Below are positions 1-14,356 of a DNA stretch of 14,356 bases, piece by piece (position 1 is the stretch's first letter; the number at the start of each line of letters is the position of its first letter). The position numbers and the translations under genes were made by a program. Source of the DNA: a virus (Duplodnaviria; Heunggongvirae; Uroviricota; Caudoviricetes); IMG/VR virus record IMGVR_UViG_2526164619_000014, one strand, 5' to 3'. The notes under the pieces are model-generated. The model searched no databases. It saw only the letters and a list, made by a program, of their open reading frames with translations, and was not told the origin of the DNA.

Positions 1-756
1 TTATTCAGAATCAATATCTTTTAAATCATCCTGAATCGCTTGTGCGTTCGGATTTTCCTGCGGTTTGAGTTCGCCGCCATTAGCGATGAAATCATGACGC
101 TGGAAGTACGCTTCGCGCACCATAATATAAGGATCGGACGACTGACGCAGCAGACCATCGGAATCCAGCAGCTGAGCGCGGGTTTCGATCCCTTCAAGCG
201 TCCATTTACCCACAGACATCGGCCAGGTCAGCCAGGAAAGAACCGGGTAAAGACCATCCGCCATATCACCACCGTCATCACGCAGCGTGAAGCTACCGTA
301 AAACGGTAACTGAACGTAAGGCCCATAACCCACGCCATAATGACCAAGCGTACTACCGAAGCGGTGAGGTTCAGTCCGTTGCAGTTTCGGGTTCGCCATC
401 CCTGCAACATCAATAAAGCCGCCCATCCCCAAAATGGTGTTCAGGAAAAAGCGGGTAAAGTGGACCATCCCCTGATAAGGGTCGCCCTGCAAGAAGTAGT
501 TAACCATCACCGCAGGTTCTTCAAGGTTGCCGGTAAAGTTGCTCAAACCGTTACGCGCCGGTTGCGGAACATAATCACGCCAGGCGACAGCGACCGGTCG
601 AACAATATACGGGTCTAATACATTGAAGTTGAAGTTGTACATGGTGCGGTTGAACCCTTCTAACGGGTCAGAACGCCCTTGCTGATCTGTACCGGAACTC
701 GCACACCCCACCAGAAGCGTAGTTCCCAGAGCAAGCGCCGACAGGCGAAGCTTCAT
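1..756 (-). CDS. mlaA: MlaA/VacJ outer-membrane lipoprotein (phospholipid transport)
   Basis: 251-aa ORF whose stop codon complement sits at window positions 1-3. N-terminal signal peptide with lipobox LVGC. Translation recognised from memory as enterobacterial MlaA/VacJ. Host-like composition. Confidence 0.9.
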   Translation of the reverse strand: MKLRLSALALGTTLLVGCASSGTDQQGRSDPLEGFNRTMYNFNFNVLDPYIVRPVAVAWRDYVPQPARNGLSNFTGNLEEPAVMVNYFLQGDPYQGMVHFTRFFLNTILGMGGFIDVAGMANPKLQRTEPHRFGSTLGHYGVGYGPYVQLPFYGSFTLRDDGGDMADGLYPVLSWLTWPMSVGKWTLEGIETRAQLLDSDGLLRQSSDPYIMVREAYFQRHDFIANGGELKPQENPNAQAIQDDLKDIDSE

Positions 757-2057: not shown

Positions 2058-2132
2058 GTCCTCTTAGTTAAATGGATATAACGAGCCCCTCCTAAGGGCT
2101 AATTGCAGGTTCGATTCCTGCAGGGGACACTT
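2058..2132 (+). tRNA. argW: tRNA-Arg (anticodon CCU), argW type; the genomic 3' end reads A-CTT rather than A-CCA
   Basis: Cloverleaf folded by hand: acceptor GTCCTCT (2058-2064) pairs with AGGGGAC (2122-2128); D arm GTTA/TAAC; anticodon stem AGCCC/GGGCT with loop CTCCTAA, anticodon CCT at 2091-2093; T arm GCAGG/CCTGC with loop TTCGATT; discriminator A at 2129. Bases 2130-2132 are CTT. Confidence 0.85.
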
Positions 2133-2304: not shown

Positions 2305-3590
2305 ATGAGTACAGATATGGCCATTAATGTGCTTTCCCCCAAACAGATAGAAAACGCCAAGCCGAAGACCAATGATTACAAACTTACCGATGGAGGGAGT
2401 TTGTATCTACTGGTACGAAAGACTGGTGGAAAATACTGGCGTATGAATTATCGTTTTGATGGAAAACAAGTGACATTGGCATTAGGGGTCTACCCAGATG
2501 TCTCACTTGCAACAGCGCGGAAACGGCGTGATGAAGCCAGGCAACTACTAGCCGATGGTCGTGATCCTCGCGAAGCAAAGAAACCCAAAAAGGAAGACCC
2601 AATTTCCCCCACGTTCGAGAGTGTTGCCAGAGAGTGGCATAGTGGAACGATGGGGCATCCTGAGTGGAAAGAGATCACCCGTAAAAAATTCTCCGAGAAA
2701 TGGAAAACCACCTCTTTCCTGCCATCGGTTCAAAGCCTATCGATACGCTCAAAACCCGTGACTTGATGCCGATGCTGGTTGAGATGACTGAGAAAGGAAT
2801 TGGTGCCACAACGAGCCGTGTAAAAACCACTATGACGAGCATCTTCCGTTATGCCGTGCAACGTGGAATTGTCGATTACAACCCTGCCCACGATCTAAAA
2901 GGTGCAATTACGGCCCCCAAAGTACGACATCGCCCCGCACTACCTCTCGAACGTTTACCTGAACTGTTAGCGAAAACGAGAAGTTACACGGGAAGACCAT
3001 TGACTCGCCTAGCAGTTCTCTTTTCCCTGCACACTTTTGTGCGATCCAGCGAACTACGACATGCCAGATGGGAGGAGATCGACATTGAAAATGGGCTATG
3101 GACGATACCAGGACAACGTGAAGAGATCGCAGGGGTTAAATTCTCAGATCGGGGTGCAAAGATGGGGGCTGCTCATTATGTCCCGCTATCTAGTCAGGCT
3201 ATCGGGGTACTGGAGGATATAAGGAAAATCAGTGGTGAATATCTGCTGGTTTTTCCCGGTGACAGCAACCCATATAAACCGATGAGCGAAAACACAGTTA
3301 ATAAAGCACTGCGAACGATGGGTTACGACACTCAAACTGATGTTTGCTTGCATGGGTTCAGGGCGATGGCCTGCTCTGCACTGACCGAATCAGGACTCTG
3401 GTCACGCGATGCAGTTGAACGGCAGATGAGTCACCAAGAAAGAAACGAAGTGCGGGCAGCATATGTGCATCTTGCGCAGCACATGCAGGAACGCCGCAGA
3501 ATGATGCAATGGTGGTCTAATTATCTGGAACTAAATAAGGACGAATTCCATGCTCCTTATGACTTATCAGGTATTAACATTATCAATTAA
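2305..3590 (+). pseudogene. int: P4-type tyrosine integrase, reading frame broken in an A6 run (2683-2688); N-terminal part 2305..2766, catalytic part 2700..3590
   Basis: N-terminal ORF carries the P4-integrase-type N-terminal domain (..YKLTDGGSLYLLVRKTGGKYWRMNYRFDGKQ..). Second ORF carries the tyrosine-recombinase catalytic domain (..HGFRAMACS.. and C-terminal ..AAYVH..). Adding one A to the run at 2683-2688 gives a continuous ..RKKILREMENHLFPAIG.. reading. Start is ATG 2305 or 2317; the 2257 extension of the ORF track is unlikely. Lies directly 3' of the tRNA, as expected for the integrase of a tRNA-inserted element. Confidence 0.85.
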
Positions 3591-3620
3591 ATACTCTTAT
3601 AATTTAAAACAGAGGTCATA

Positions 3621-4502
3621 ATGCAGCATTCAACAGAGAATGAAACTATATTCTTAGGAAATCTATGGATTGACAAAAAAATACCACCATTAGAATATTG
3701 TTCATTTGAACGCGCTTCAAGACTATTAGAATGCGAGATTGATGATTTATTACATCTATACGAAATAGGCGCTTTTAATATCGCATTCAAGGCGGATGGA
3801 CTTGCAGTTAGATTTAATGTTAATTTCCTCAATAAAAATCAGAAAATGGAAATTGACTTAATTCATCCCGTATTAACTAATCAATCACTAGAGATGGAAT
3901 TTTCAACAATATGGTATGACCTTAAAGATGATTCCTTTGAACATTTTGAAAATGGGCTTCAAATTATAGGATTTGCCTGTGGTATTTGGTACGCCGATGA
4001 TATGATAAGTGACATAAAAAATGGATTAGCTATAGATCCAGATTATGAATTCAGGCTTAAACCGGTAAAAATACGAGATAATGTTTTGATGGCAACGGCC
4101 TCATATGAAGGAAATAAGGTCATTGAGATTCCATTTGAAGATCTTCTTATCATGCGAAGAGATTTAGAGTTAATATGGAAATCAGTAAAAACTGGAATTC
4201 CTATGCCAAGTTTACTTACGAAAAGAATTTCATCTGAACCTAAAATCCCCAAGCGATTAAATAACACTGCTGAGCATCATGCAAAAAATAGGGAGGGGTT
4301 ATTAAATGCAGCCATATATATATTAGCAAAATACCCAAGCGAATGTCGTGGTGAAAGAAAAGAGATAAGTCCTGAAAAGTGGACTAACGCCATAATTAAA
4401 CATTTAGGAGAGCTACCTCCAATATTTATCACTAATGAACAAGAAATCTTAAGAAAATTACGATTAGCGGTTAATCATGCGGGATTAAAACAAAAGGGGT
4501 AG
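3621..4502 (+). CDS. hypothetical protein (293 aa), AT-rich, no recognisable domain; sits between int and alpA
   Basis: Uninterrupted ORF with a good Shine-Dalgarno (AGAGG shortly upstream of ATG 3621). Clearly lower G+C than the flanking int and alpA genes (judged by eye). No motif I can assign. Confidence 0.6.
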   Translation: MQHSTENETIFLGNLWIDKKIPPLEYCSFERASRLLECEIDDLLHLYEIGAFNIAFKADGLAVRFNVNFLNKNQKMEIDLIHPVLTNQSLEMEFSTIWYDLKDDSFEHFENGLQIIGFACGIWYADDMISDIKNGLAIDPDYEFRLKPVKIRDNVLMATASYEGNKVIEIPFEDLLIMRRDLELIWKSVKTGIPMPSLLTKRISSEPKIPKRLNNTAEHHAKNREGLLNAAIYILAKYPSECRGERKEISPEKWTNAIIKHLGELPPIFITNEQEILRKLRLAVNHAGLKQKG

Positions 4503-4604
4503 ACTGAAACAATCTACAGGTAGAGTTGATTACACTACCTTCACAGCATTTTGATATCCCCATAGTATCTGCCGTGTTCATTACATAATACGGCAGGTAA
4601 TTTC

Positions 4605-4820
4605 ATGACATTAAAAACTTATCCTATCACTGGACATGCCCGCCCACGAGCTACTGCTGACTTTTTGCAAATAAGTACGGTTACTCTCTGGCGCTGGGAA
4701 AAGAACAATCCTGAATTTCCCAAATCTATACGCATTTCAAAACGGGTATCTGTTTACGATGCACAAGAAATTAGGCAGTGGGTTAAAGCTCAATCAGCAG
4801 GATTGGAGGAAGTAGTGTAA
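4605..4820 (+). CDS. alpA: AlpA-family phage transcriptional regulator / excisionase-like HTH protein
   Basis: 71-aa ORF; the segment ..FLQISTVTLWRWEKNNPEFPKSIRISKRVSVYDAQEIRQWV.. matches the AlpA/Vis-type winged-HTH pattern as recalled. Shine-Dalgarno AGGT 6 nt upstream of the ATG. Confidence 0.8.
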   Translation: MTLKTYPITGHARPRATADFLQISTVTLWRWEKNNPEFPKSIRISKRVSVYDAQEIRQWVKAQSAGLEEVV

Positions 4821-7285: not shown

Positions 7286-7669
7286 ATGAACCAGCCGCAG
7301 GTTTCCATTTTCCCGGTAGAAATGACCACCGCGCTTTACCGGCGGGCTATTGCTTCAGCATGGCGGCAGAAAATGCTGAACGAAACTGGCAGTGATCAGT
7401 ATGGTCCGCACAGCCTGACGGTGGAGCGTATTGAAATGGCCATTGCGCTGCATATCGAGTGCGTACTGATTAACGAGTACGGCGAAGTGCAGGGCGCCGC
7501 TGCCGCGCTGGCACTGCTGACTGACATGCTGGAGCCGTCACTGCTGACCGCGCCGCCGGTACTGACCGCGCGCGGCTGTGAAGTGATGGCGGAGATGTAC
7601 CGCACGCTTCCGGCGGCATTTGATGACTTCTGCAGTACCGGTGTGACGTTGTATGAGGGGGAAGTATGA
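7286..7669 (+). CDS. hypothetical protein (127 aa), second gene of the primase operon
   Basis: ATGA overlaps at both ends (7286-7289 and 7666-7669) couple it to the flanking genes. No recognisable motif. Confidence 0.6.
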   Translation: MNQPQVSIFPVEMTTALYRRAIASAWRQKMLNETGSDQYGPHSLTVERIEMAIALHIECVLINEYGEVQGAAAALALLTDMLEPSLLTAPPVLTARGCEVMAEMYRTLPAAFDDFCSTGVTLYEGEV

Positions 7670-10338
7670 CAATACAGACGGTTACGCAGGTTTCAGCCGC
7701 CGCACGGGGGAAATGGCCCGTTATTCTGCAGATGCTGCGTATTGATGTACCTGAAAACGGCAGGCACGGTCCCTGCCCGAAATGTGGGGGCAAGGATCGT
7801 TTTCGCCTTGATGACCTTGACGGGCGCGGGACGTGGATCTGCAGCCAGTGTGGCAATGGTGACGGTCTGGATCTGGTTAAGCTCGTAACCGGTTACAGCG
7901 TCAGAAAGGCTGCGCAGGAGGTGGCGCAGGTGCTTAATGTGCCGGATATGCAGGAACTGCCTGTTAAGCCTGCCAGACAAAAAGCCCCTAAACGCGACAT
8001 GGGTCTTACCGTGGCGGCGCTGATGAAAGAGAGCCACACGGGAGAAAGCGCCTATCTGACAGGAAAAGGGTTCGCCGGATACCCGGCCTCTCTGACCGGA
8101 AGCGTACAGCATATCAGCGGTAAGGATTTTCCTGCCGGTTCCCTGCTGTTACCACTCACGACCAACACCGGAGCCGTGACCGGTGCACAGCTTATCGCCC
8201 CGACGGGTGAAAAAAGCATACTGCCCGGCAGCACGATGAAAGGCGCGTTTGTGTCGCTCAGCCCGTTACCGTCTGAACCACCGATACAGGTGGTGATTAC
8301 CGAAGGTTACGCTACGGCGCTGACGGTAAGCCAGCTCACTGCCGGATGCGTAGTGGCTGCCATATCTGCGGGCAACCTGCCCAATGTGGCGCAGTCGCTG
8401 CGGGCACGCTGGCCTGAGGTAAAAATTATCATCGCCGGTGATAACGATTTTCAGGACGGGGGTGAGAATCCCGGCAGAGCCTTTGCTGAACGGGCGGCAA
8501 AAGCTGTTGGCGGCTGGATGACGCTGCCACCAGGAGAGATTAAGGCTGACTGGAATGACTTTCATCGGGAGCACGGTATTACCCGTGCCCGTGAAGCCTT
8601 TCGCAACGGTCTGGTACTCTGCGGGGAAAGCCGCACGCAACTGCCGCACGGGTTCCGTCTTACCCAGGAATATCTCTGGTATGAAAAGCAGGTACAGCGC
8701 AACGGTGAGACGGAGATCCAGAACGTCAAAATATGCAGCCCGCTGCGCGTGACGGCAATCACCTGCGATGCCGATGGCGGTAACTTCGGACGACTGCTGG
8801 AATGGGAAGATACGTGGGGTGAGTGTCGCCGCTGGGCGATGCCGATGGAAATGCTGAGCGGCAGTGGTGAGGAACTGCGCCGGGTACTGCTGGTTAACGG
8901 GCTGTCTTATATCAGCACCACCGGTGAGGCACGCGCACGCCTGATGGAATATATCTCACTGTGTAAACCGGAACGCCGCGTGACCTGCATCAGTCGTACT
9001 GGCTGGCATGGTCAGGTTTACGTCCTGCAGGATGAGGTCAGCGGTGAAGGTGCAGAGGGTGTCATTCTCCAGACCACTTCCGTGCAGGGGCGTGATTTCC
9101 GCGTGTCGGGCACAACAGAGGAATGGCGGGAGCATGTATCCCGCTACTGTACCGGCAACTCCCGCGTGGCATTTGCTGTCAGCCTGGCCTTTGCTGCACC
9201 ACTGTTACGGCTGGTTGGTATGGACGGCGGCGGCTACCACCTCAAAGGGGAATCGACAGACGGTAAGACCACCACCATGAAAGCAGCAACCTCCGTCTGC
9301 GGCGGGCCTGACTACTGGCAGACATGGCGGGCCACCGGCAACGCGCTGGAGGGATGCGCCAGCCGCCGCAACGATGCCGCCATGATGCTTGATGAGATCC
9401 GGGAAGTTGACGGACGCGAGGCAGGCAATATCGCCTACATGCTGGCAAACGGTCAGGGCAAGGGCCGTGCCGGTACGGACGGTGAGCTGCGTACCCGTAA
9501 GCAGTGGCGCCTGTTGTTCTTTTCAACTGGCGAATTGTCTCTGACCGAACATGCGGCAAAGGCCGGTGAGCGTACTTTTGCCGGGATGGAAGTCAGGATG
9601 ATCCAGATCCCCAGCGATTCCGGGAAGTTTGGCGTTTTTGAGGAGCTGCACGGCTTCGACAGCGGCAAGGCTCTGGCAGAGCATCTTGAATGGGCCACGT
9701 CCTGCTACTACGGTTCGCCGTTCCGGGAGTGGCTGAAAGCACTGACCGCTGATCTTAACGGACTAACGGCACAGGCAAAATCGCTGATGAAGGAATATGC
9801 TGCCGCCCTGACTCCGAAAGATGCAGGCAATCAGGTGGGCCGGGCTGTGAACCGCTTTGCACTGGTGGCGATGGCAGGTGAACTGGCAACCCGTCTGGGT
9901 ATCACCGGCTGGCCTGAGGGTGAAGCACTGCGGGCAACCCGCGTCTGCCTGAACGCATGGCTGAAAGATCGCGGGCACACCGCCAATCAGGAAGATATCG
10001 CCGCACTGGAGCAGGTTCGCAGTTTCTTTACCGCGAATCAGTACAGCCGCTTTGCAGACTGGTATGACGAGCGCAACCGCCCCGGCAATATGGTGGGCTG
10101 GCGAAGGGTGGAGAAAGGCAGTACCGCGCAGGGCACGGAAGCTGTCACTACGTTCTATGTCATGCCGTCCGGCTGGAAAGAAATCTGCAGGGGATTTGAC
10201 CCGCGCAAGGTGGCGCGTCTGTGCGCAGATCGTGGATACCTGCTGCCCTCCACTGATGGCAAACTCCAGACAACCATTCGCCCGCCAGAGATGAATCCCC
10301 GCAGGCTCTATGTCTTCAACAGCGAGGTGCCGGGTTAA
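7666..10338 (+). CDS. P4 alpha-like primase/helicase (zinc-binding N-terminus, TOPRIM primase, D5-type P-loop NTPase)
   Basis: 890-aa ORF. N-terminal CPKCGGKDRFRLDD..WICSQCG zinc-ribbon typical of P4-family primases. Walker A GESTDGKT at about residue 525. GAGGGGG Shine-Dalgarno before ATG 7666. Confidence 0.9.
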   Translation: MTIQTVTQVSAAARGKWPVILQMLRIDVPENGRHGPCPKCGGKDRFRLDDLDGRGTWICSQCGNGDGLDLVKLVTGYSVRKAAQEVAQVLNVPDMQELPVKPARQKAPKRDMGLTVAALMKESHTGESAYLTGKGFAGYPASLTGSVQHISGKDFPAGSLLLPLTTNTGAVTGAQLIAPTGEKSILPGSTMKGAFVSLSPLPSEPPIQVVITEGYATALTVSQLTAGCVVAAISAGNLPNVAQSLRARWPEVKIIIAGDNDFQDGGENPGRAFAERAAKAVGGWMTLPPGEIKADWNDFHREHGITRAREAFRNGLVLCGESRTQLPHGFRLTQEYLWYEKQVQRNGETEIQNVKICSPLRVTAITCDADGGNFGRLLEWEDTWGECRRWAMPMEMLSGSGEELRRVLLVNGLSYISTTGEARARLMEYISLCKPERRVTCISRTGWHGQVYVLQDEVSGEGAEGVILQTTSVQGRDFRVSGTTEEWREHVSRYCTGNSRVAFAVSLAFAAPLLRLVGMDGGGYHLKGESTDGKTTTMKAATSVCGGPDYWQTWRATGNALEGCASRRNDAAMMLDEIREVDGREAGNIAYMLANGQGKGRAGTDGELRTRKQWRLLFFSTGELSLTEHAAKAGERTFAGMEVRMIQIPSDSGKFGVFEELHGFDSGKALAEHLEWATSCYYGSPFREWLKALTADLNGLTAQAKSLMKEYAAALTPKDAGNQVGRAVNRFALVAMAGELATRLGITGWPEGEALRATRVCLNAWLKDRGHTANQEDIAALEQVRSFFTANQYSRFADWYDERNRPGNMVGWRRVEKGSTAQGTEAVTTFYVMPSGWKEICRGFDPRKVARLCADRGYLLPSTDGKLQTTIRPPEMNPRRLYVFNSEVPG

Positions 10339-10738: not shown

Positions 10739-11482
10739 ATGAACAATACCGCAGTAAATAACAACCTTTCCACTTTTCCGGCTGTAACGCAGCGGGCACT
10801 GGAAACCATGAACACAGCCAGAAACGCATGGCTTGAAGCACGTCGTCAGCAGAAAGCGGCAGCGGATAATATTGCGACAATCCGCCAGCGTCGCGCTGAA
10901 ATGGAAGCCACGACGAACACACTGAATGAGGAGTGGCGCACGCTGTTTCGTGAAAGTCAGGGCGTGGTCTCAAAGGAAATGAAAAAACTGCGCACGGAAA
11001 TTGCGCTGGGACGAGAAACGCTTGAGGATTTTGATGAGCTGCTGGCGGCTCAGGAAAGCGAAAATGCACTTTTGCCGCAGAAAGCTGCAGAATTAGCCGG
11101 AAAGTATATCCACGCGCATAACATTCTTGTGGATATTCGCGCAAAACAAATCTGGGAGGATTTTATGCAGTCGCATGGAAAAGCGCTTATTCAGACGCTG
11201 AGCCTGCTTAAATCCACAATGGGCCGGGAAGCCAGTGCCGTTGTGGGTGTGGTGAATTCAGTTAATGACCCGGACACAGTGCTGAAAGACTTTATTCATA
11301 AACATATCACCAGACCGGCTCTGGCTAACGATGCGATGCCTGAGCAGGACCCGGTGTTTAAACTGGCGGGAGTTGCCCCGGATTATGCGGCGCGTCTGGA
11401 TTTCAGTAATCAACTCTCTCCGGCAGCTATGCATAAAATTAAGGTTCGTCAGGAACTCGCTGAGAAGGAGAAAGCAGTATGA
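10739..11482 (+). CDS. sid: Sid-like protein (P4 capsid size-determination / external scaffold homologue)
   Basis: 247-aa alpha-helical, charged protein; size and position (first gene of the late operon, followed by Psu-like and Ogr/Delta genes) fit P4 Sid. N-terminus resembles the Psu-like protein downstream. Assignment by context and recalled similarity only. Confidence 0.5.
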   Translation: MNNTAVNNNLSTFPAVTQRALETMNTARNAWLEARRQQKAAADNIATIRQRRAEMEATTNTLNEEWRTLFRESQGVVSKEMKKLRTEIALGRETLEDFDELLAAQESENALLPQKAAELAGKYIHAHNILVDIRAKQIWEDFMQSHGKALIQTLSLLKSTMGREASAVVGVVNSVNDPDTVLKDFIHKHITRPALANDAMPEQDPVFKLAGVAPDYAARLDFSNQLSPAAMHKIKVRQELAEKEKAV

Positions 11483-12030
11483 CGGCCCGAGGCACGCCTG
11501 ACCAGGCACTTACCAGTTTTCGGAATGCCCGTATTCTGTGGGCCGGACATAGTGAGAGCCGAAAAGCCGTTGAACAACAGATAACATCTCTCCTCGCTGC
11601 CACAGAAAAACCAGCAGATTATGCCCGACAGCTCGAATTACTGCGGGAACGTCTGGATGTGCTGAAATGGCAAATTAACTGTGCTGCGCGCGAATGCATT
11701 TACGCGCAGCATTTACTGATGGAGGCCTGCACAGAAGCCGCTCTCAGCAATTTTATGCAGGCGAATGGGGCAGCCCTGACATCTGCACTGGCTCCGTTCC
11801 TGAAGGGGCGCGGAGGGGTTGACGTTGCGTCCCGTATATTACGCAGTGCTCTGGTTCGCCAGCTGGCAATAACACCGCCTGAAATTGCCGGGGATTATCG
11901 TGAGATCCTGGATGAATCCGGTTTGATACCTGACCCCGGGATGATTCGTGATTGCCAGGACTCTTACACCCCGGCACAACATCTGCATTTTCAGCAACGC
12001 CTGAATGACATTAACGATATACAGGAGTGA
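11479..12030 (+). CDS. psu: Psu-like protein (P4 polarity suppression protein homologue)
   Basis: 183-aa ORF, ATGA-coupled to the preceding gene. Contains ..KWQINCAA.., ..FMQANGAALTSALAP.., ..YTPAQHL.. which match motifs I recall from P4 Psu (not verified by search). Confidence 0.6.
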   Translation: MTARGTPDQALTSFRNARILWAGHSESRKAVEQQITSLLAATEKPADYARQLELLRERLDVLKWQINCAARECIYAQHLLMEACTEAALSNFMQANGAALTSALAPFLKGRGGVDVASRILRSALVRQLAITPPEIAGDYREILDESGLIPDPGMIRDCQDSYTPAQHLHFQQRLNDINDIQE

Positions 12031-12308
12031 TTTTAAGGGCACTTAAATGTCCGGAATGCGGTACAGTTGCACACGCCAGAACAGCAGCCTATGAAGCTCC
12101 GTCAGTTAAACGCTCGTGGTATCAGTGCCAGAATCTGGAATGTTCCTGCACATTTACGGCACTGGAGAGTGTGGATAAGATAATCATGAAACCCCGGCGC
12201 AATGAACAGGAACCAGACAAATCACACCCCCCGGTAAAACAACAGCAAACGCTCAATCGCTATGGCTCCGCGTCAAAACTGTCAAGCCGTCAGCAGATTC
12301 CTGTCTGA
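12027..12308 (+). CDS. Ogr/Delta-family zinc-finger late-gene transcriptional activator
   Basis: ..CPECGTVAHART..YQCQNLECSCTFTALESV..IMKP.. is the Ogr/Delta signature (C-x2-C ... C-x4-C). Apparent GTG start overlapping the psu-like stop (GTGA). Confidence 0.85.
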   Translation: MILRALKCPECGTVAHARTAAYEAPSVKRSWYQCQNLECSCTFTALESVDKIIMKPRRNEQEPDKSHPPVKQQQTLNRYGSASKLSSRQQIPV

Positions 12309-12380: not shown

Positions 12381-12495
12381 GCGCATGAGTGCATGTCTAT
12401 AGCGCATGAAAACGCATGAACCTTATGCACCATTTTTGACGAGAAAGCCCTTGTGTGGTGGCTTCTGAGACGATTTATGAGGTGCATGAAAACCA
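12381..12495. repeat. cluster of GCATGA(A) direct repeats in the intergenic region after the late operon
   Basis: GCGCATGA 12381-12388, GTGCATG 12389-12395, GCGCATGAAAAC 12402-12413, GCATGAA 12414-12420, GTGCATGAAAACC 12483-12495. Function unknown. Confidence 0.4.
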
Positions 12496-12791
12496 GTCTG
12501 TTAAGCGAAGCGGGCAGGCGTGCGGGGCTGTTCGCATCAACATAAAAATAACGGGCTGATATAGTTATAAAATCAAATGAACTCTTTTAGTACGACATGG
12601 GTATGTGCGCCAGTAGCAACGTCAGCCCCCAAGCTTTCTATTGTTCTTTTCTGTTGTACCATCAATACGTACCGATTAGCTCCTAAGCATCAATATCAGT
12701 TTGAACGTATTGCTTTGAACTAATTTTTAGATGATTTTTTTCATTAAAAATTATAATGTTGTAGATAAAAAGAGAATCTTATAGAGGCGTT

Positions 12792-13480
12792 ATGTCAAAT
12801 AAAGTTGATGTTTTTTGAGCCGAGTTAGCCATGTATCACAGTTTGTATTGGTGGCATTTGCTATTTTTGGATATTTTTATACAGTAAGACCAATTTACCA
12901 AAAGGAACTTTTATCAGAAGAAATTGCAAAAAAAGAAGTTGAATTAAATAAATTAAAAACTGCAATGGAAAACTCCCAAAAATTTATAGAGAATAATAAA
13001 ATCTTACGAAAAGAATTGGAGGGAAGCATTGCCAAACTTGATTTACAATACAAAGAATCAGAAGAAAAATTAAATTCAATAAATTCTGAACTAAGAAAAA
13101 CTTTAAATGAACTAAATAAACAAAAGACCATTGCCAAAAGAGCGGTCAATGCAAACAACAAGAATCTTGAATCTGTTTTCTGGGAGAATTTTTCGGGGCT
13201 AGTTGGAGTAGTTTATATTTCTAAGAGCACAGATTTTGTGAACAATACACTGGGTGACGCCAAAACAGCCTATAATACTCCTAGTAATTTATATATATCT
13301 CCTTATGATGCAATTAATGAAGCATTAAAAAATGGCAATCATAACTTTATCTCAAGTTCAGAAAATGTCCCTGAAAATATCCGCAACAAAATTCTAGCAA
13401 AGATCCGTCGCGCTATTGAAAAAAATAAGATTTCATTAACAAAAAACCTATCGGTTTTGATGAAAAAATTAATAGCCTGA
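12792..13480 (+). CDS. cargo protein A: membrane-anchored coiled-coil protein of unknown function (about 229 aa if read from ATG 12792 through a one-base frame break in the T6 run 12811-12816; the ORF track gives TTG 12815..13480)
   Basis: AGAGG Shine-Dalgarno then ATG 12792 encodes MSNKVDVF and stops at TGA 12816-12818; the long ORF continues in the -1 frame from 12815. The joined N-terminus MSNKVDVFLSRVSH.. aligns with the in-frame N-terminus of the downstream paralogue. One hydrophobic helix (FVLVAFAIFGYFYTV), then a K/E-rich coiled-coil-like region. Strongly AT-rich. Confidence 0.6.
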
Positions 13481-13921
13481 TAAAAACTATAGAGTCAACT
13501 AAGTTACGCAAAAATGAAAACGAAATAATGAAAAATAACACTGCAGAAAGAGAACTATCATCTTATATTTTCCTGATAAATGGTCAATCAAGAATCCGCG
13601 CCATGGATTTCTTAAAAGACATTCAACATTTAGACTAATATTGGATATCTTATAATGAATACTAATACTAAATTTGATTTATGGTTGATTAGAGTAAGTT
13701 ACATTGCCCAAGTTGGATTGTTTTTTTGACAACCTTTACAATATTTTACACAGTAATTCCGATATACCAAAATGCAAATCTGCAGGAATCAATAGCAAAA
13801 AAGAAATCGAATATAAACAATTACAAGACAAAGAAAAACTCTATATTTAAAGTTAAGAAAGGAATATTCAAGAAAATATGTTGTTGATGCAATCTCCCAA
13901 TGTTCTCCAACAGAAATACTT

Positions 13922-14356
13922 ATGCGTCAACCATCTGAAGATGACAGTAAAAAATCACATGATGTAAGAATGAAGGAATTAAAAACATTTTTAAACAAAG
14001 ATATAACCAGTTGCTTTGAAAAAACTTTTTATAGCAACCCTTACATTAAGGAATTAAGAGACACTGATCAACAAAATATTCTTCTTAAAATTAAAAATTT
14101 ATCCCCCACTATAACTAAACTACATGAAAAATATAAAGCAGAATTTGATGACGATAGCAAGTTATTGAATACTGGAAAAGAAAAATCGACAAGATTAAAA
14201 GAGGTGGAAGATTATTTAATAGGAATAGGAGGTTACACAGAAAACAGCAAAAAGGATTTTGAAAACTCATACATAGAATCTGGAGCATATGACTTGGTTG
14301 TAAGGTATGGTTTTGAAGTCAACGATCTATTTTCCAAAACCATCAGAGACAATTAA
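13922..14356 (+). CDS. cargo protein B, C-terminal 144 aa as an intact ORF; the full paralogous gene probably starts at ATG 13655 and is interrupted by three one-base frame breaks (T run 13721-13727, A run 13797-13802, A run 13834-13838)
   Basis: Reading 13655..14356 with one base added at each of the three runs gives MNTNTKFDLWLIRVSYIAQVGLFFLTTFTIFYTVIPIYQNANLQESIAKKEIEYKQLQDKEKTLYLKLRKEY.. which aligns with cargo protein A over about 70 residues. The C-terminal half is unrelated to protein A. Stop codon is the last three bases of the window. Confidence 0.5.
   Translation: MRQPSEDDSKKSHDVRMKELKTFLNKDITSCFEKTFYSNPYIKELRDTDQQNILLKIKNLSPTITKLHEKYKAEFDDDSKLLNTGKEKSTRLKEVEDYLIGIGGYTENSKKDFENSYIESGAYDLVVRYGFEVNDLFSKTIRDN

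Follow-up and report, generated by a model that had tools for sequence, protein, structure and literature searches.

The window analysed here, a stretch of 14,356 nt deposited as IMG/VR virus record IMGVR_UViG_2526164619_000014, was found to be Escherichia coli chromosome with a P4-like satellite inserted after mlaA, yfdC and the tRNA-Arg(CCT) gene argW. The gene under study, here called X (3621–4502, plus strand, ATG start, 293 aa), was located between two genes of this satellite. Upstream lay int (2317–3590, plus strand), which encoded a P4-type tyrosine integrase with Arm-DNA-bind_3, Phage_int_M and Phage_integrase domains, and downstream lay alpA (4605–4820, plus strand), which encoded an AlpA-family regulator/excisionase (Pfam PF05930, E=1.6e-7; PHROG excisionase/regulator families). 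All three genes were on the plus strand, with the int stop at 3590 and the X start at 3621 separated by 30 nt, and the alpA start at 4605. A first reading, made from the letters alone (the sequence-only reading), had placed X between int and alpA as an uncharacterised gene; both neighbours were confirmed, and the gene was found to lie in a P4-like satellite integrated at tRNA-Arg (argW).

X is a real protein-coding gene. The translation contained no internal stop, and a Shine-Dalgarno-like AGAGG (3611–3615, plus strand), read from the sequence, was located 5 nt upstream of the ATG, in agreement with the uninterrupted frame and good ribosome-binding site noted before. The GC fraction of X was 0.34, compared with 0.48 for int and 0.42 for alpA, and along the window it was 0.32–0.34 over positions 3601–4400, 0.48–0.51 in the integrase and 0.39–0.44 around alpA; the gene was thus clearly more AT-rich than both neighbours, as first described. 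The same difference was found in all ten loci measured (0.34–0.40 for X against 0.42–0.54 for the flanks). At about 33% GC, stops make up about 7.5% of random codons, and the arithmetic from composition gave p of about 1e-10 for 293 stop-free codons. The ratio of nonsynonymous to synonymous substitution rates (dN/dS) was 0.09 (locus L001 vs L013) and 0.085 (L014 vs L015) in close pairs; between distant alleles this ratio was uninformative, with dS saturated. The coding status of X follows from these two observations, the improbable length of the open frame and the dN/dS of about 0.09 in close homologues.

Among the 5426 complete E. coli genomes, 66 carried the X allele (at least 95% nucleotide identity), in every case on the chromosome and with the annotation 'hypothetical protein'. 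The gene was interrupted by the insertion sequence IS1 in two of these 66 genomes (NZ_CP069707, H7; NZ_CP119006, H16), and a truncated allele of 235 aa was found in IMG/VR locus L035 (3515–4222). In strain DAX4, IS1 directly followed int, and the remainder of the satellite was gone.

Occupancy of the int–alpA slot

The order int–X–alpA, with a P4-type int and all three genes on one strand, was found in 15 of 15 loci reached through X homologues. The int–X gaps were 7–96 nt and the X–alpA gaps about 100–125 nt, and in locus L020 alpA was present only as a 47-aa remnant. The 15 loci span at least three integration sites. The argW loci were the E. coli window, OW1E2, AH21 and NMBU-W12E19. Loci next to yicC came from E. 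coli, Yersinia, Serratia and Rosenbergiella, and the Pectobacterium and Intestinirhabdus integrases grouped with these; loci next to der came from Salmonella and a metagenome. The others were found in a Pantoea genome and in a 22.9-kb Klebsiella plasmid record. The integrases beside X, where domain-annotated, were all of the P4 type (Arm-DNA-bind_3, Phage_int_M and Phage_integrase). Outside the module the gene content differed, with AntA, Bro-N, Ash or ORF6N in some loci and primases of either the DUF927 or the D5 type.

Three Klebsiella records of 21–23 kb that matched X were filed as plasmids (NZ_CP033626.1, L079; CP031371.2; LR134256.1). The first of these carried int–X–alpA together with AntA and Icd-like genes, and looked like an excised or episomal satellite. 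A further Klebsiella gene, with similarity to X in the N-terminal region only, was located outside any int–alpA module.

The collection reached through X was checked for bias with 44 IMG/VR loci fetched by AlpA alignment alone, in which the open reading frames (ORFs) were scored with hidden Markov models (HMMs) of Int, X and AlpA; 41 of these loci were evaluable. All 41 had int 800–1300 nt upstream of alpA with one co-directional gene between them, and int abutted alpA in none of the 41. The slot gene belonged to the X family in 27 loci and to at least four other families in the remaining 14. These alternative families, of 179, about 216, 233 and 284–293 aa, were seen in loci L045, L046, L053, L057, L060, L061–L065 and L071–L073. 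The C-termini of four of them aligned in register with that of X (hhalign E 0.01–0.14), and the N-terminus of the 284–293-aa family, altB, aligned with the N-terminus of X (hhalign E=0.004). A loose C-terminal pattern was common to X and the alternative families, consisting of a basic stretch, a hydrophobic helix and ...S..TI..W/L.... These alignments are suggestive only; the alternative families may be very remote homologues of X, and homology is not claimed.

The sequence-only reading had regarded the interval as an accessory position. Its sequence did vary strongly between satellites, but the slot always held one co-directional gene, of the X family in about two thirds of cases. A high-identity core gene shared by all related elements, the opposite expectation, was not found in the literal sense, as identity was low, but most related elements carried a homologue, and for this reason the view of X as variable cargo is weakened. 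In the window, the canonical P4 defence hotspot lay elsewhere, in a second AT-rich block after sid/psu/delta. The int–alpA interval therefore does not behave like a free cargo position or accessory hotspot. It almost always consisted of one unstudied gene, which in Enterobacterales was usually a member of the single large X family.

Divergence of X between conserved neighbours

Within groups of satellites that shared an integration site, Int was 76–93% and AlpA 62–92% identical (the truncated L020 copy excluded), whereas X was mostly 20–36% identical. Closer X pairs were L001–L013 (67%), L002–L006 (61%) and L014–L015 (87%). The satellite of E. coli AH21 occupied the same site as that of the window; its alpA was 93% identical in nucleotide sequence and its Icd-like protein did not differ, whereas its X was only 25% identical. 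The identities of Int and X were weakly correlated (Spearman 0.37).

At short range X was not unusual. Between the window and EC0430, X differed by 12 substitutions in 882 nt and int by about 17 in 1274 nt, and in 63 full-length E. coli copies int–X–alpA formed one unit at identities of at least 98.6%. The pattern is therefore that of a single slot that diversified either anciently or at an accelerated rate, its alleles having been exchanged between modules that are conserved in other respects, and not one of ongoing decay. Hypervariability of this kind would be expected of a specificity determinant facing phages or competing elements.

Family and domain architecture of protein X

X had no match in Pfam, PHROGs or NCBIfam, and a PADLOC scan gave no family at E≤0.1. 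Over 149 aligned family members, no consistent Pfam match was obtained even at E≤5, with scattered single hits only. Against PDB sequences, the family profile returned chance-level hits only (E≥0.26), Foldseek gave nothing at E≤0.001 against PDB and BFVD, and tblastn against 50,697 phage records gave no match. The earlier remark that X has no recognisable motif thus stood against all of these collections. A word-indexed search yielded 14 X clusters, and an exhaustive HMM search from their alignment yielded 566 clusters at 50% identity (E≤1e-3), of which 176 were at E≤1e-10; most members were 260–370 aa long. A profile scan of genome contigs returned only three loci. All named members were from Enterobacterales, namely Escherichia, Salmonella, Klebsiella, Enterobacter, Serratia and Yersinia, and also Pantoea, Pectobacterium, Pluralibacter, Rosenbergiella and Intestinirhabdus. 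X is a member of a large undescribed protein family, which deserves a name whichever function is assigned to it.

The architecture of X was derived from three alignments (A1–A3) and two AlphaFold2 models with a mean predicted local distance difference test score (pLDDT) of 68. The predicted N-terminal unit (residues ~20–55) was composed of a strand (residues 26–28), two helices (residues 29–36 and 40–48) and a second strand (residues 54–57), with pLDDT values of 80–91 for residues 21–50, and carried the conserved motif PLEYCSL.RAA.LL.CE..DL.HW..IGAI. It was followed by a beta-rich, hypervariable centre (residues ~56–198) and a disordered linker (residues ~199–214). The conserved C-terminal domain (residues ~215–290) contained four helices and the pattern NRE..LL..AI.IL.KYP.ECRGERKEISPEKW...PP..ITNE..IL..LR.AVN. 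In the nearer relatives NRE, YP.ECRG, K.ISPEKW, PP and Asn272 were invariant, and the C-terminal domain included a set of invariant residues rich in charged side chains (Glu218, Asn223, Arg224, Glu225, Glu241, Cys242, Arg243, Gly244, Lys247 and Ser250–Trp254). Mean pairwise identities were 44–55% for the N-terminal unit, 18–23% for the centre and 24–45% for the C-terminal domain. The remoter members retained the N-terminus and centre with other C-terminal types, and the ECRG-type C-terminal domain was also found behind other N-terminal regions (P0032, P0037 and P0047).

The N-terminal motif aligned in register with the AlpA helix-turn-helix, at hhalign E=0.024 and a probability of only 2%. The weak Foldseek hits of X (E>1) included the RdfS excisionase and a MerR-family protein, and HTH_17 matched one of the 149 members (E=0.023).

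The slot held a single gene in a fixed orientation, mostly of the same family, with conserved ends and a hypervariable centre, and X is on these grounds regarded as part of the integration/induction module. It resembled a built-in specificity or switch component more than random cargo.

Non-coding signals around X and alpA

A sigma-70-like promoter, TTAACA-18 nt-TATAAT (3574–3603, plus strand; 11 of 12 consensus matches), ran from within the 3' end of int to just beyond it, and would give X its own transcript. A second promoter-like site, TTCACA-17 nt-TAGTAT (4540–4568, plus strand; 9 of 12 consensus matches), was located upstream of alpA. Both are consensus matches only, and in total the AT-rich region contained no more such sites than its shuffled counterparts did.

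The spacer between int and X (~93 nt) was strongly conserved in the yicC and der groups (...GAACAGATTGAGCCTAGCCCGACGGGGCGAAAAGCGGAAAACCTTACCGCCTG...; loci L006, L014, L015, L017, L020, L029 and L030), and the X genes that followed it were only 20–35% identical. It could act as a promoter or form a structured element. In the argW group, including the window, the spacer was 21–91 nt long and lacked this sequence.

An imperfect palindrome, ACAGGTAGAGT-N7-ACTACCT (4516–4540, plus strand), began 14 nt after the X stop codon and abutted the putative −35 element of alpA; its 15-mer occurred once in the window. In eight loci with the ECRG-type C-terminal domain (the window, L002, L006, L013–L015, L017 and L052), the palindrome was conserved as GGTA[CG]AGT-N2-9-ACTGT[AG]CCTTAT, and the synonymous and third-codon positions of the adjoining coding DNA varied. 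Loci with other X C-terminal types carried other palindromes (AAACTTTGAAAGTTT or GTGATTTTTGAAAAATC). The type of palindrome tracked the C-terminal type of X and not the type of AlpA: in the pairs L015/L030 and L017/L031, the AlpA proteins were very similar (~80–85% by inspection, not computed) but the palindromes were different. As a sequence feature, the palindrome is equally compatible with an operator bound by X and with a terminator or stability hairpin of the X transcript.

The alpA leader contained a predicted hairpin (4566–4599, plus strand) of 13 bp with an 8-nt loop (RNAfold free energy, dG, −17.8 kcal/mol; z −4.4), the 3' arm of which covered the AGG ribosome-binding site at 4595–4597, 7 nt before the alpA ATG. 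Equivalent hairpins were found in 12 of 13 X-carrying satellites and in a PICMI (phage-inducible chromosomal minimalist island) of Vibrio, with dG values of −11.7 to −21.5 and z values of −2.1 to −6.7. They were listed in loci L002, L006, L011, L013–L015, L017, L020, L029–L031 and L023, and the 3' arm either covered the Shine-Dalgarno sequence or reached the AUG. The arm sequences differed by lineage, as CUGCCGU/ACGGCAG, CCCGUAAC/GUUACGGG, CCCCAUAAC/GUUAUGGGG and ACCCCUA/UAGGGGU. No such hairpin was present at the alpA gene of CP4-57 in K-12. RNAalifold on a MAFFT alignment of the leaders gave no pairs, the hairpins lying in different registers, and the folding of each sequence was used instead. 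The hairpin suggests a conserved translational control of alpA, which would be a second possible control point of the module.

Comparison with known systems

The closest positional counterpart of X was found in the PICMI satellites of Vibrio, which have an integrase-overlapping gene (iolg) or an integrase-contiguous gene (icg) between int and alpA (PMC10803314). These genes belong to 13 families among 35 PICMI subfamilies and are all of unknown function (PMC10803314). In PICMI115, deletion of iolg abolished helper-induced excision, packaging and transduction, and was complemented with int and iolg together; Int and IOLG were proposed to be constitutive and AlpA phage-induced, with the three proteins forming one complex (PMC10803314). 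The need for iolg in excision is shown for PICMI115 only. X and iolg/icg share the arrangement of a single co-directional gene next to int and before alpA, with divergent families in the slot, and the reported constitutive expression of iolg with int (PMC10803314) would fit the promoter-like site of X. X was contiguous with int, as icg is, and did not overlap it as iolg does. It was also larger than the IOLG of PICMI115 (195 aa) and carried the conserved N-terminal helix-turn-helix-like motif.

PICMI115-type loci (IOLG of 195–196 aa) were recovered through their AlpA, and this family (IOLGd) was the one of the 13 that was compared; a scan of viral contigs with PICMI AlpA found nothing. Homology was rejected, since hhalign of the 149-sequence X profile against L027 (62–646) and L023 (4325–4912) gave a probability of 0.1–0.2 and E values of 0.3–0.5. 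By sequence comparison X is a positional analogue of the IOLG of PICMI115 and not a member of its family. The X family fills a slot that had earlier been flagged only in Vibrio PICMIs.

Stl carries a DNA-binding domain at its N-terminus; the variable domains behind it bind helper-phage proteins, and the protein is very different from one island to another even where the modules are otherwise similar. Like X, Stl/Rpr is encoded next to int and is highly divergent amid conserved modules, and the domain-wise conservation of X fits the same logic. X is read in the same direction as alpA and the genes behind it, whereas Stl is transcribed divergently from the lytic operon, and no similarity of sequence or fold was found between the two. 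Stl/Rpr couples the cycle of the Staphylococcus aureus pathogenicity islands (SaPIs) and of Gram-positive phage-inducible chromosomal islands (PICIs) to the helper, whereas Gram-negative PICIs use the activator AlpA and no global repressor is known (PMC6092414).

The helix-turn-helix of proteins of the AlpA/Vis/Xis type (MerR superfamily; PF05930, PF12728) aligned in register with the motif Y.S..RAA.LL.C...DL.HW...G and with the predicted strands and helices of residues 26–57 of X, and X is encoded in the same module as AlpA. The match was not significant by Pfam, hhalign or Foldseek, and X was four times longer, with two further domains.

Two other candidates were rejected. The sequence-only reading had named yfjH of the prophage CP4-57 as an analogue, and YfjH is indeed encoded between intA and alpA in K-12, with a similar length (318 aa) and unknown function. 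However, intA and alpA are on the plus strand and yfjH on the minus strand, BLASTP gave E=1.5, and hhalign and HMM searches gave nothing; YfjH is unrelated to X. The cII gene of phage P4 (sce7726 family) follows a P4-type integrase gene directly and on the same strand, as X does, but the hhalign probability was 0.2 and X had no NCBIfam hit. Moreover, cII lies in the int–psu hotspot region with alpA/vis far away, whereas X lies between int and alpA. The papers on hotspots of P4-like satellites, which place the defence hotspots at int–psu and primase–att, do not mention X (PMC8628076, PMC13586616).

Possible function of X

Our preferred reading, held tentatively and regarded as possible rather than probable, is that X is a DNA-binding switch or sensor, present constitutively, which governs the induction of alpA and hence excision. 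Expression of X would be constitutive, driven by a promoter of its own where int ends, and the protein would bind DNA through its conserved terminal domains, with the palindrome at 4516–4540, next to the alpA promoter, as the candidate site. The hypervariable beta-rich centre would recognise a lineage-specific cue, for example a helper-phage protein or a co-resident element, and this recognition would set whether alpA, and with it excision and the lytic programme of the satellite, is switched on. That X binds DNA, where it binds, to which cue it responds and with which sign it regulates are all inferences; by analogy, the phenotype of the PICMI iolg deletion would fit an activator and the SaPI Stl a repressor. 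The fixed position of X, its hypervariability between conserved flanks, the conserved palindrome beside the alpA −35 element and the promoter-like site of X itself were counted in favour of this reading, as was the need for the non-homologous slot gene of PICMI115 in helper-induced excision (PMC10803314). The predicted N-terminal fold, the in-register alignment with AlpA and the weak Foldseek hits were counted as hints of DNA binding.

Several observations weigh against control of alpA by X. X had no significant similarity to any DNA-binding family by Pfam, hhalign or Foldseek. The palindrome is physically linked to the 3' end of X, so that hitch-hiking could account for the way it follows the C-terminal type, and its spacer of 2–9 nt and arms that tolerate G.U pairs fit an RNA terminator hairpin at least equally well. 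When autoregulation was tested, no half-site of the palindrome was found upstream of X in 13 of 13 loci (p≥0.28). The sole experimental precedent, PICMI iolg, was not detectably homologous and was complemented only together with int. The IS1 insertions and the truncated allele among natural copies of X count on the same side. In addition, the functional PICI EcCIMP1 has an int–alpA gap of 427 nt with a small ORF, and three PICMI subfamilies have no slot gene (PMC10803314), from which it follows that the function of the slot is not universal.

How the helper is detected and alpA switched on in Gram-negative satellites (PICIs, PICMIs and the P4-like class) is a documented open question (PMC6092414; PMC10803314), for which X offers a concrete gene to study. 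A wider proposal, decidedly improbable as a whole, is that the helper sensor still missing from the picture of Gram-negative satellites, the functional counterpart of Stl, is X together with the other genes of the slot, PICMI iolg perhaps among them. The centre of the DNA-bound, constitutively expressed X would then recognise a specific helper-phage protein and turn on alpA, either at its promoter or by opening the leader hairpin, and the alleles of the slot would set the helper range.

The first alternative, broadly the proposal of the sequence-only reading, is a single-gene anti-phage or interference function, in which a phage component would be sensed by the centre and the effector would be the C-terminal domain, with X next to int only through shared transmission. 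The AT-richness of X against its flanks in every locus measured would suit such a gene, as would its extreme divergence between conserved neighbours, which is expected of a gene in an arms race. The many invariant charged residues of the C-terminal domain and the occurrence of this domain behind other N-terminal regions point in the same direction, and the natural IS1 insertions show that the cell can do without X. Satellites are known to carry defence genes (PMC9122126, PMC13586616), and UP2 of the PICMIs is a single-gene defence (PMC10803314). However, PADLOC gave no hit, and the slot held one co-directional gene of mostly one family, whereas known hotspots hold variable numbers of unrelated systems. 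In P4-like satellites and PICIs the published defence hotspots are at other places, namely int–psu, primase–att and att–int, and the N-terminal helix-turn-helix-like motif would be left unexplained. Furthermore, homologues of X were found only in the int–alpA slot, and none in the 50,697 phage records. Three plasmid hits were inspected: H67 (22.9 kb) had int–X–alpA, L078 had no adjacent co-directional int or alpA, and H66, of 4.9 Mb, was evidently an E. coli chromosome that had been filed as a plasmid. An anti-phage role is rather doubtful; were it correct, X would represent a novel single-gene system whose place in satellites is fixed.

An accessory role in recombination, in which X would join Int and AlpA in an excision/integration complex at the attachment (att) sites as proposed for IOLG, was considered unlikely. 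X occupies the position of iolg/icg, excision was lost in the iolg deletion of PICMI115, and the PICMI slot is likewise hypervariable, with its 13 families in 35 subfamilies (PMC10803314). The resemblance of the N-terminal motif to the excisionase/AlpA helix-turn-helix and the uniform P4 type of the domain-annotated neighbouring integrases also agree with such a role. A partner of Int and att should, however, co-evolve with them and track the ~90%-identical integrases of the same site; X does not, with identities of 20–36% beside such integrases and the weak Spearman correlation given above, and a simple Int/att cofactor is for this reason disfavoured. In addition, no homology to PICMI IOLG was detectable, the EcCICFT073 island was induced by cloned alpA alone, needing int and pri (PMC6092414), and in EcCIMP1, which excises, the slot contains only a small ORF.

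That X is a moron or other accessory gene directed at the host, acting for instance on host physiology or virulence gene expression without a satellite or phage role, or else a decaying remnant, is very unlikely. In favour of this reading, a low GC is commonly seen in horizontally acquired, H-NS-silenced genes, PICIs carry host-directed regulators such as PerC, and X is intact in an element that may be immobile (int frameshifted). Against it stand purifying selection (omega ~0.09), strict positional conservation across genera and integration sites, the 566 clusters at 50% identity and the length of the ORF, which is unexpected by chance in AT-rich DNA.

The satellite and its flanking genes

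The host flank contained mlaA (1–756, minus strand) and yfdC (1050–1982). The tRNA-Arg(CCT) gene argW (2058–2130, plus strand), found by ARAGORN and Rfam, was the integration site and the left boundary of the satellite, in agreement with the RefSeq context mlaA–yfdC–tRNA-Arg–int. Rfam detected only this tRNA in the window, and a P4 CI-type RNA was not found.

The int gene of the window was frameshifted, with an A6 run at 2683–2688 compared with A7 in 63 other E. coli copies. OW1E2, EC0430 and all 63 full-length E. coli matches had one more base at this run than the window, and the 1-nt deletion split int into ORFs 2257–2766 and 2700–3590. The frameshift is either a genuine pseudogene, with an immobilised satellite, or a homopolymer sequencing error.

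Downstream of alpA, the satellite contained a DUF5375 gene (7286–7669), a Toprim/DUF927 primase gene (7666–10338) and Sid/Psu-like and Delta-like genes (10739–12308), the last named by the RefSeq annotation of near-identical copies. The gene order was int–X–alpA–...–alpha–sid–psu–delta. The order in phage P4 differs, with int, cII–beta–gop, cos and psu–delta–sid followed by vis (the alpA homologue) and alpha.

The second AT-rich block, from ~12400 to the window end at 14356 (GC 0.27–0.32), follows sid/psu/delta and would be at the canonical P4 defence-hotspot position in the circularised element. An ORF at 12815–13480 (221 aa) gave weak coiled-coil matches to SMC and LmuB, the PADLOC match to LmuB (E=6e-5) being far below confident, and another ORF, starting at 13922, extended beyond the window end. 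The content of this block (12400–14356) differed among related E. coli copies.

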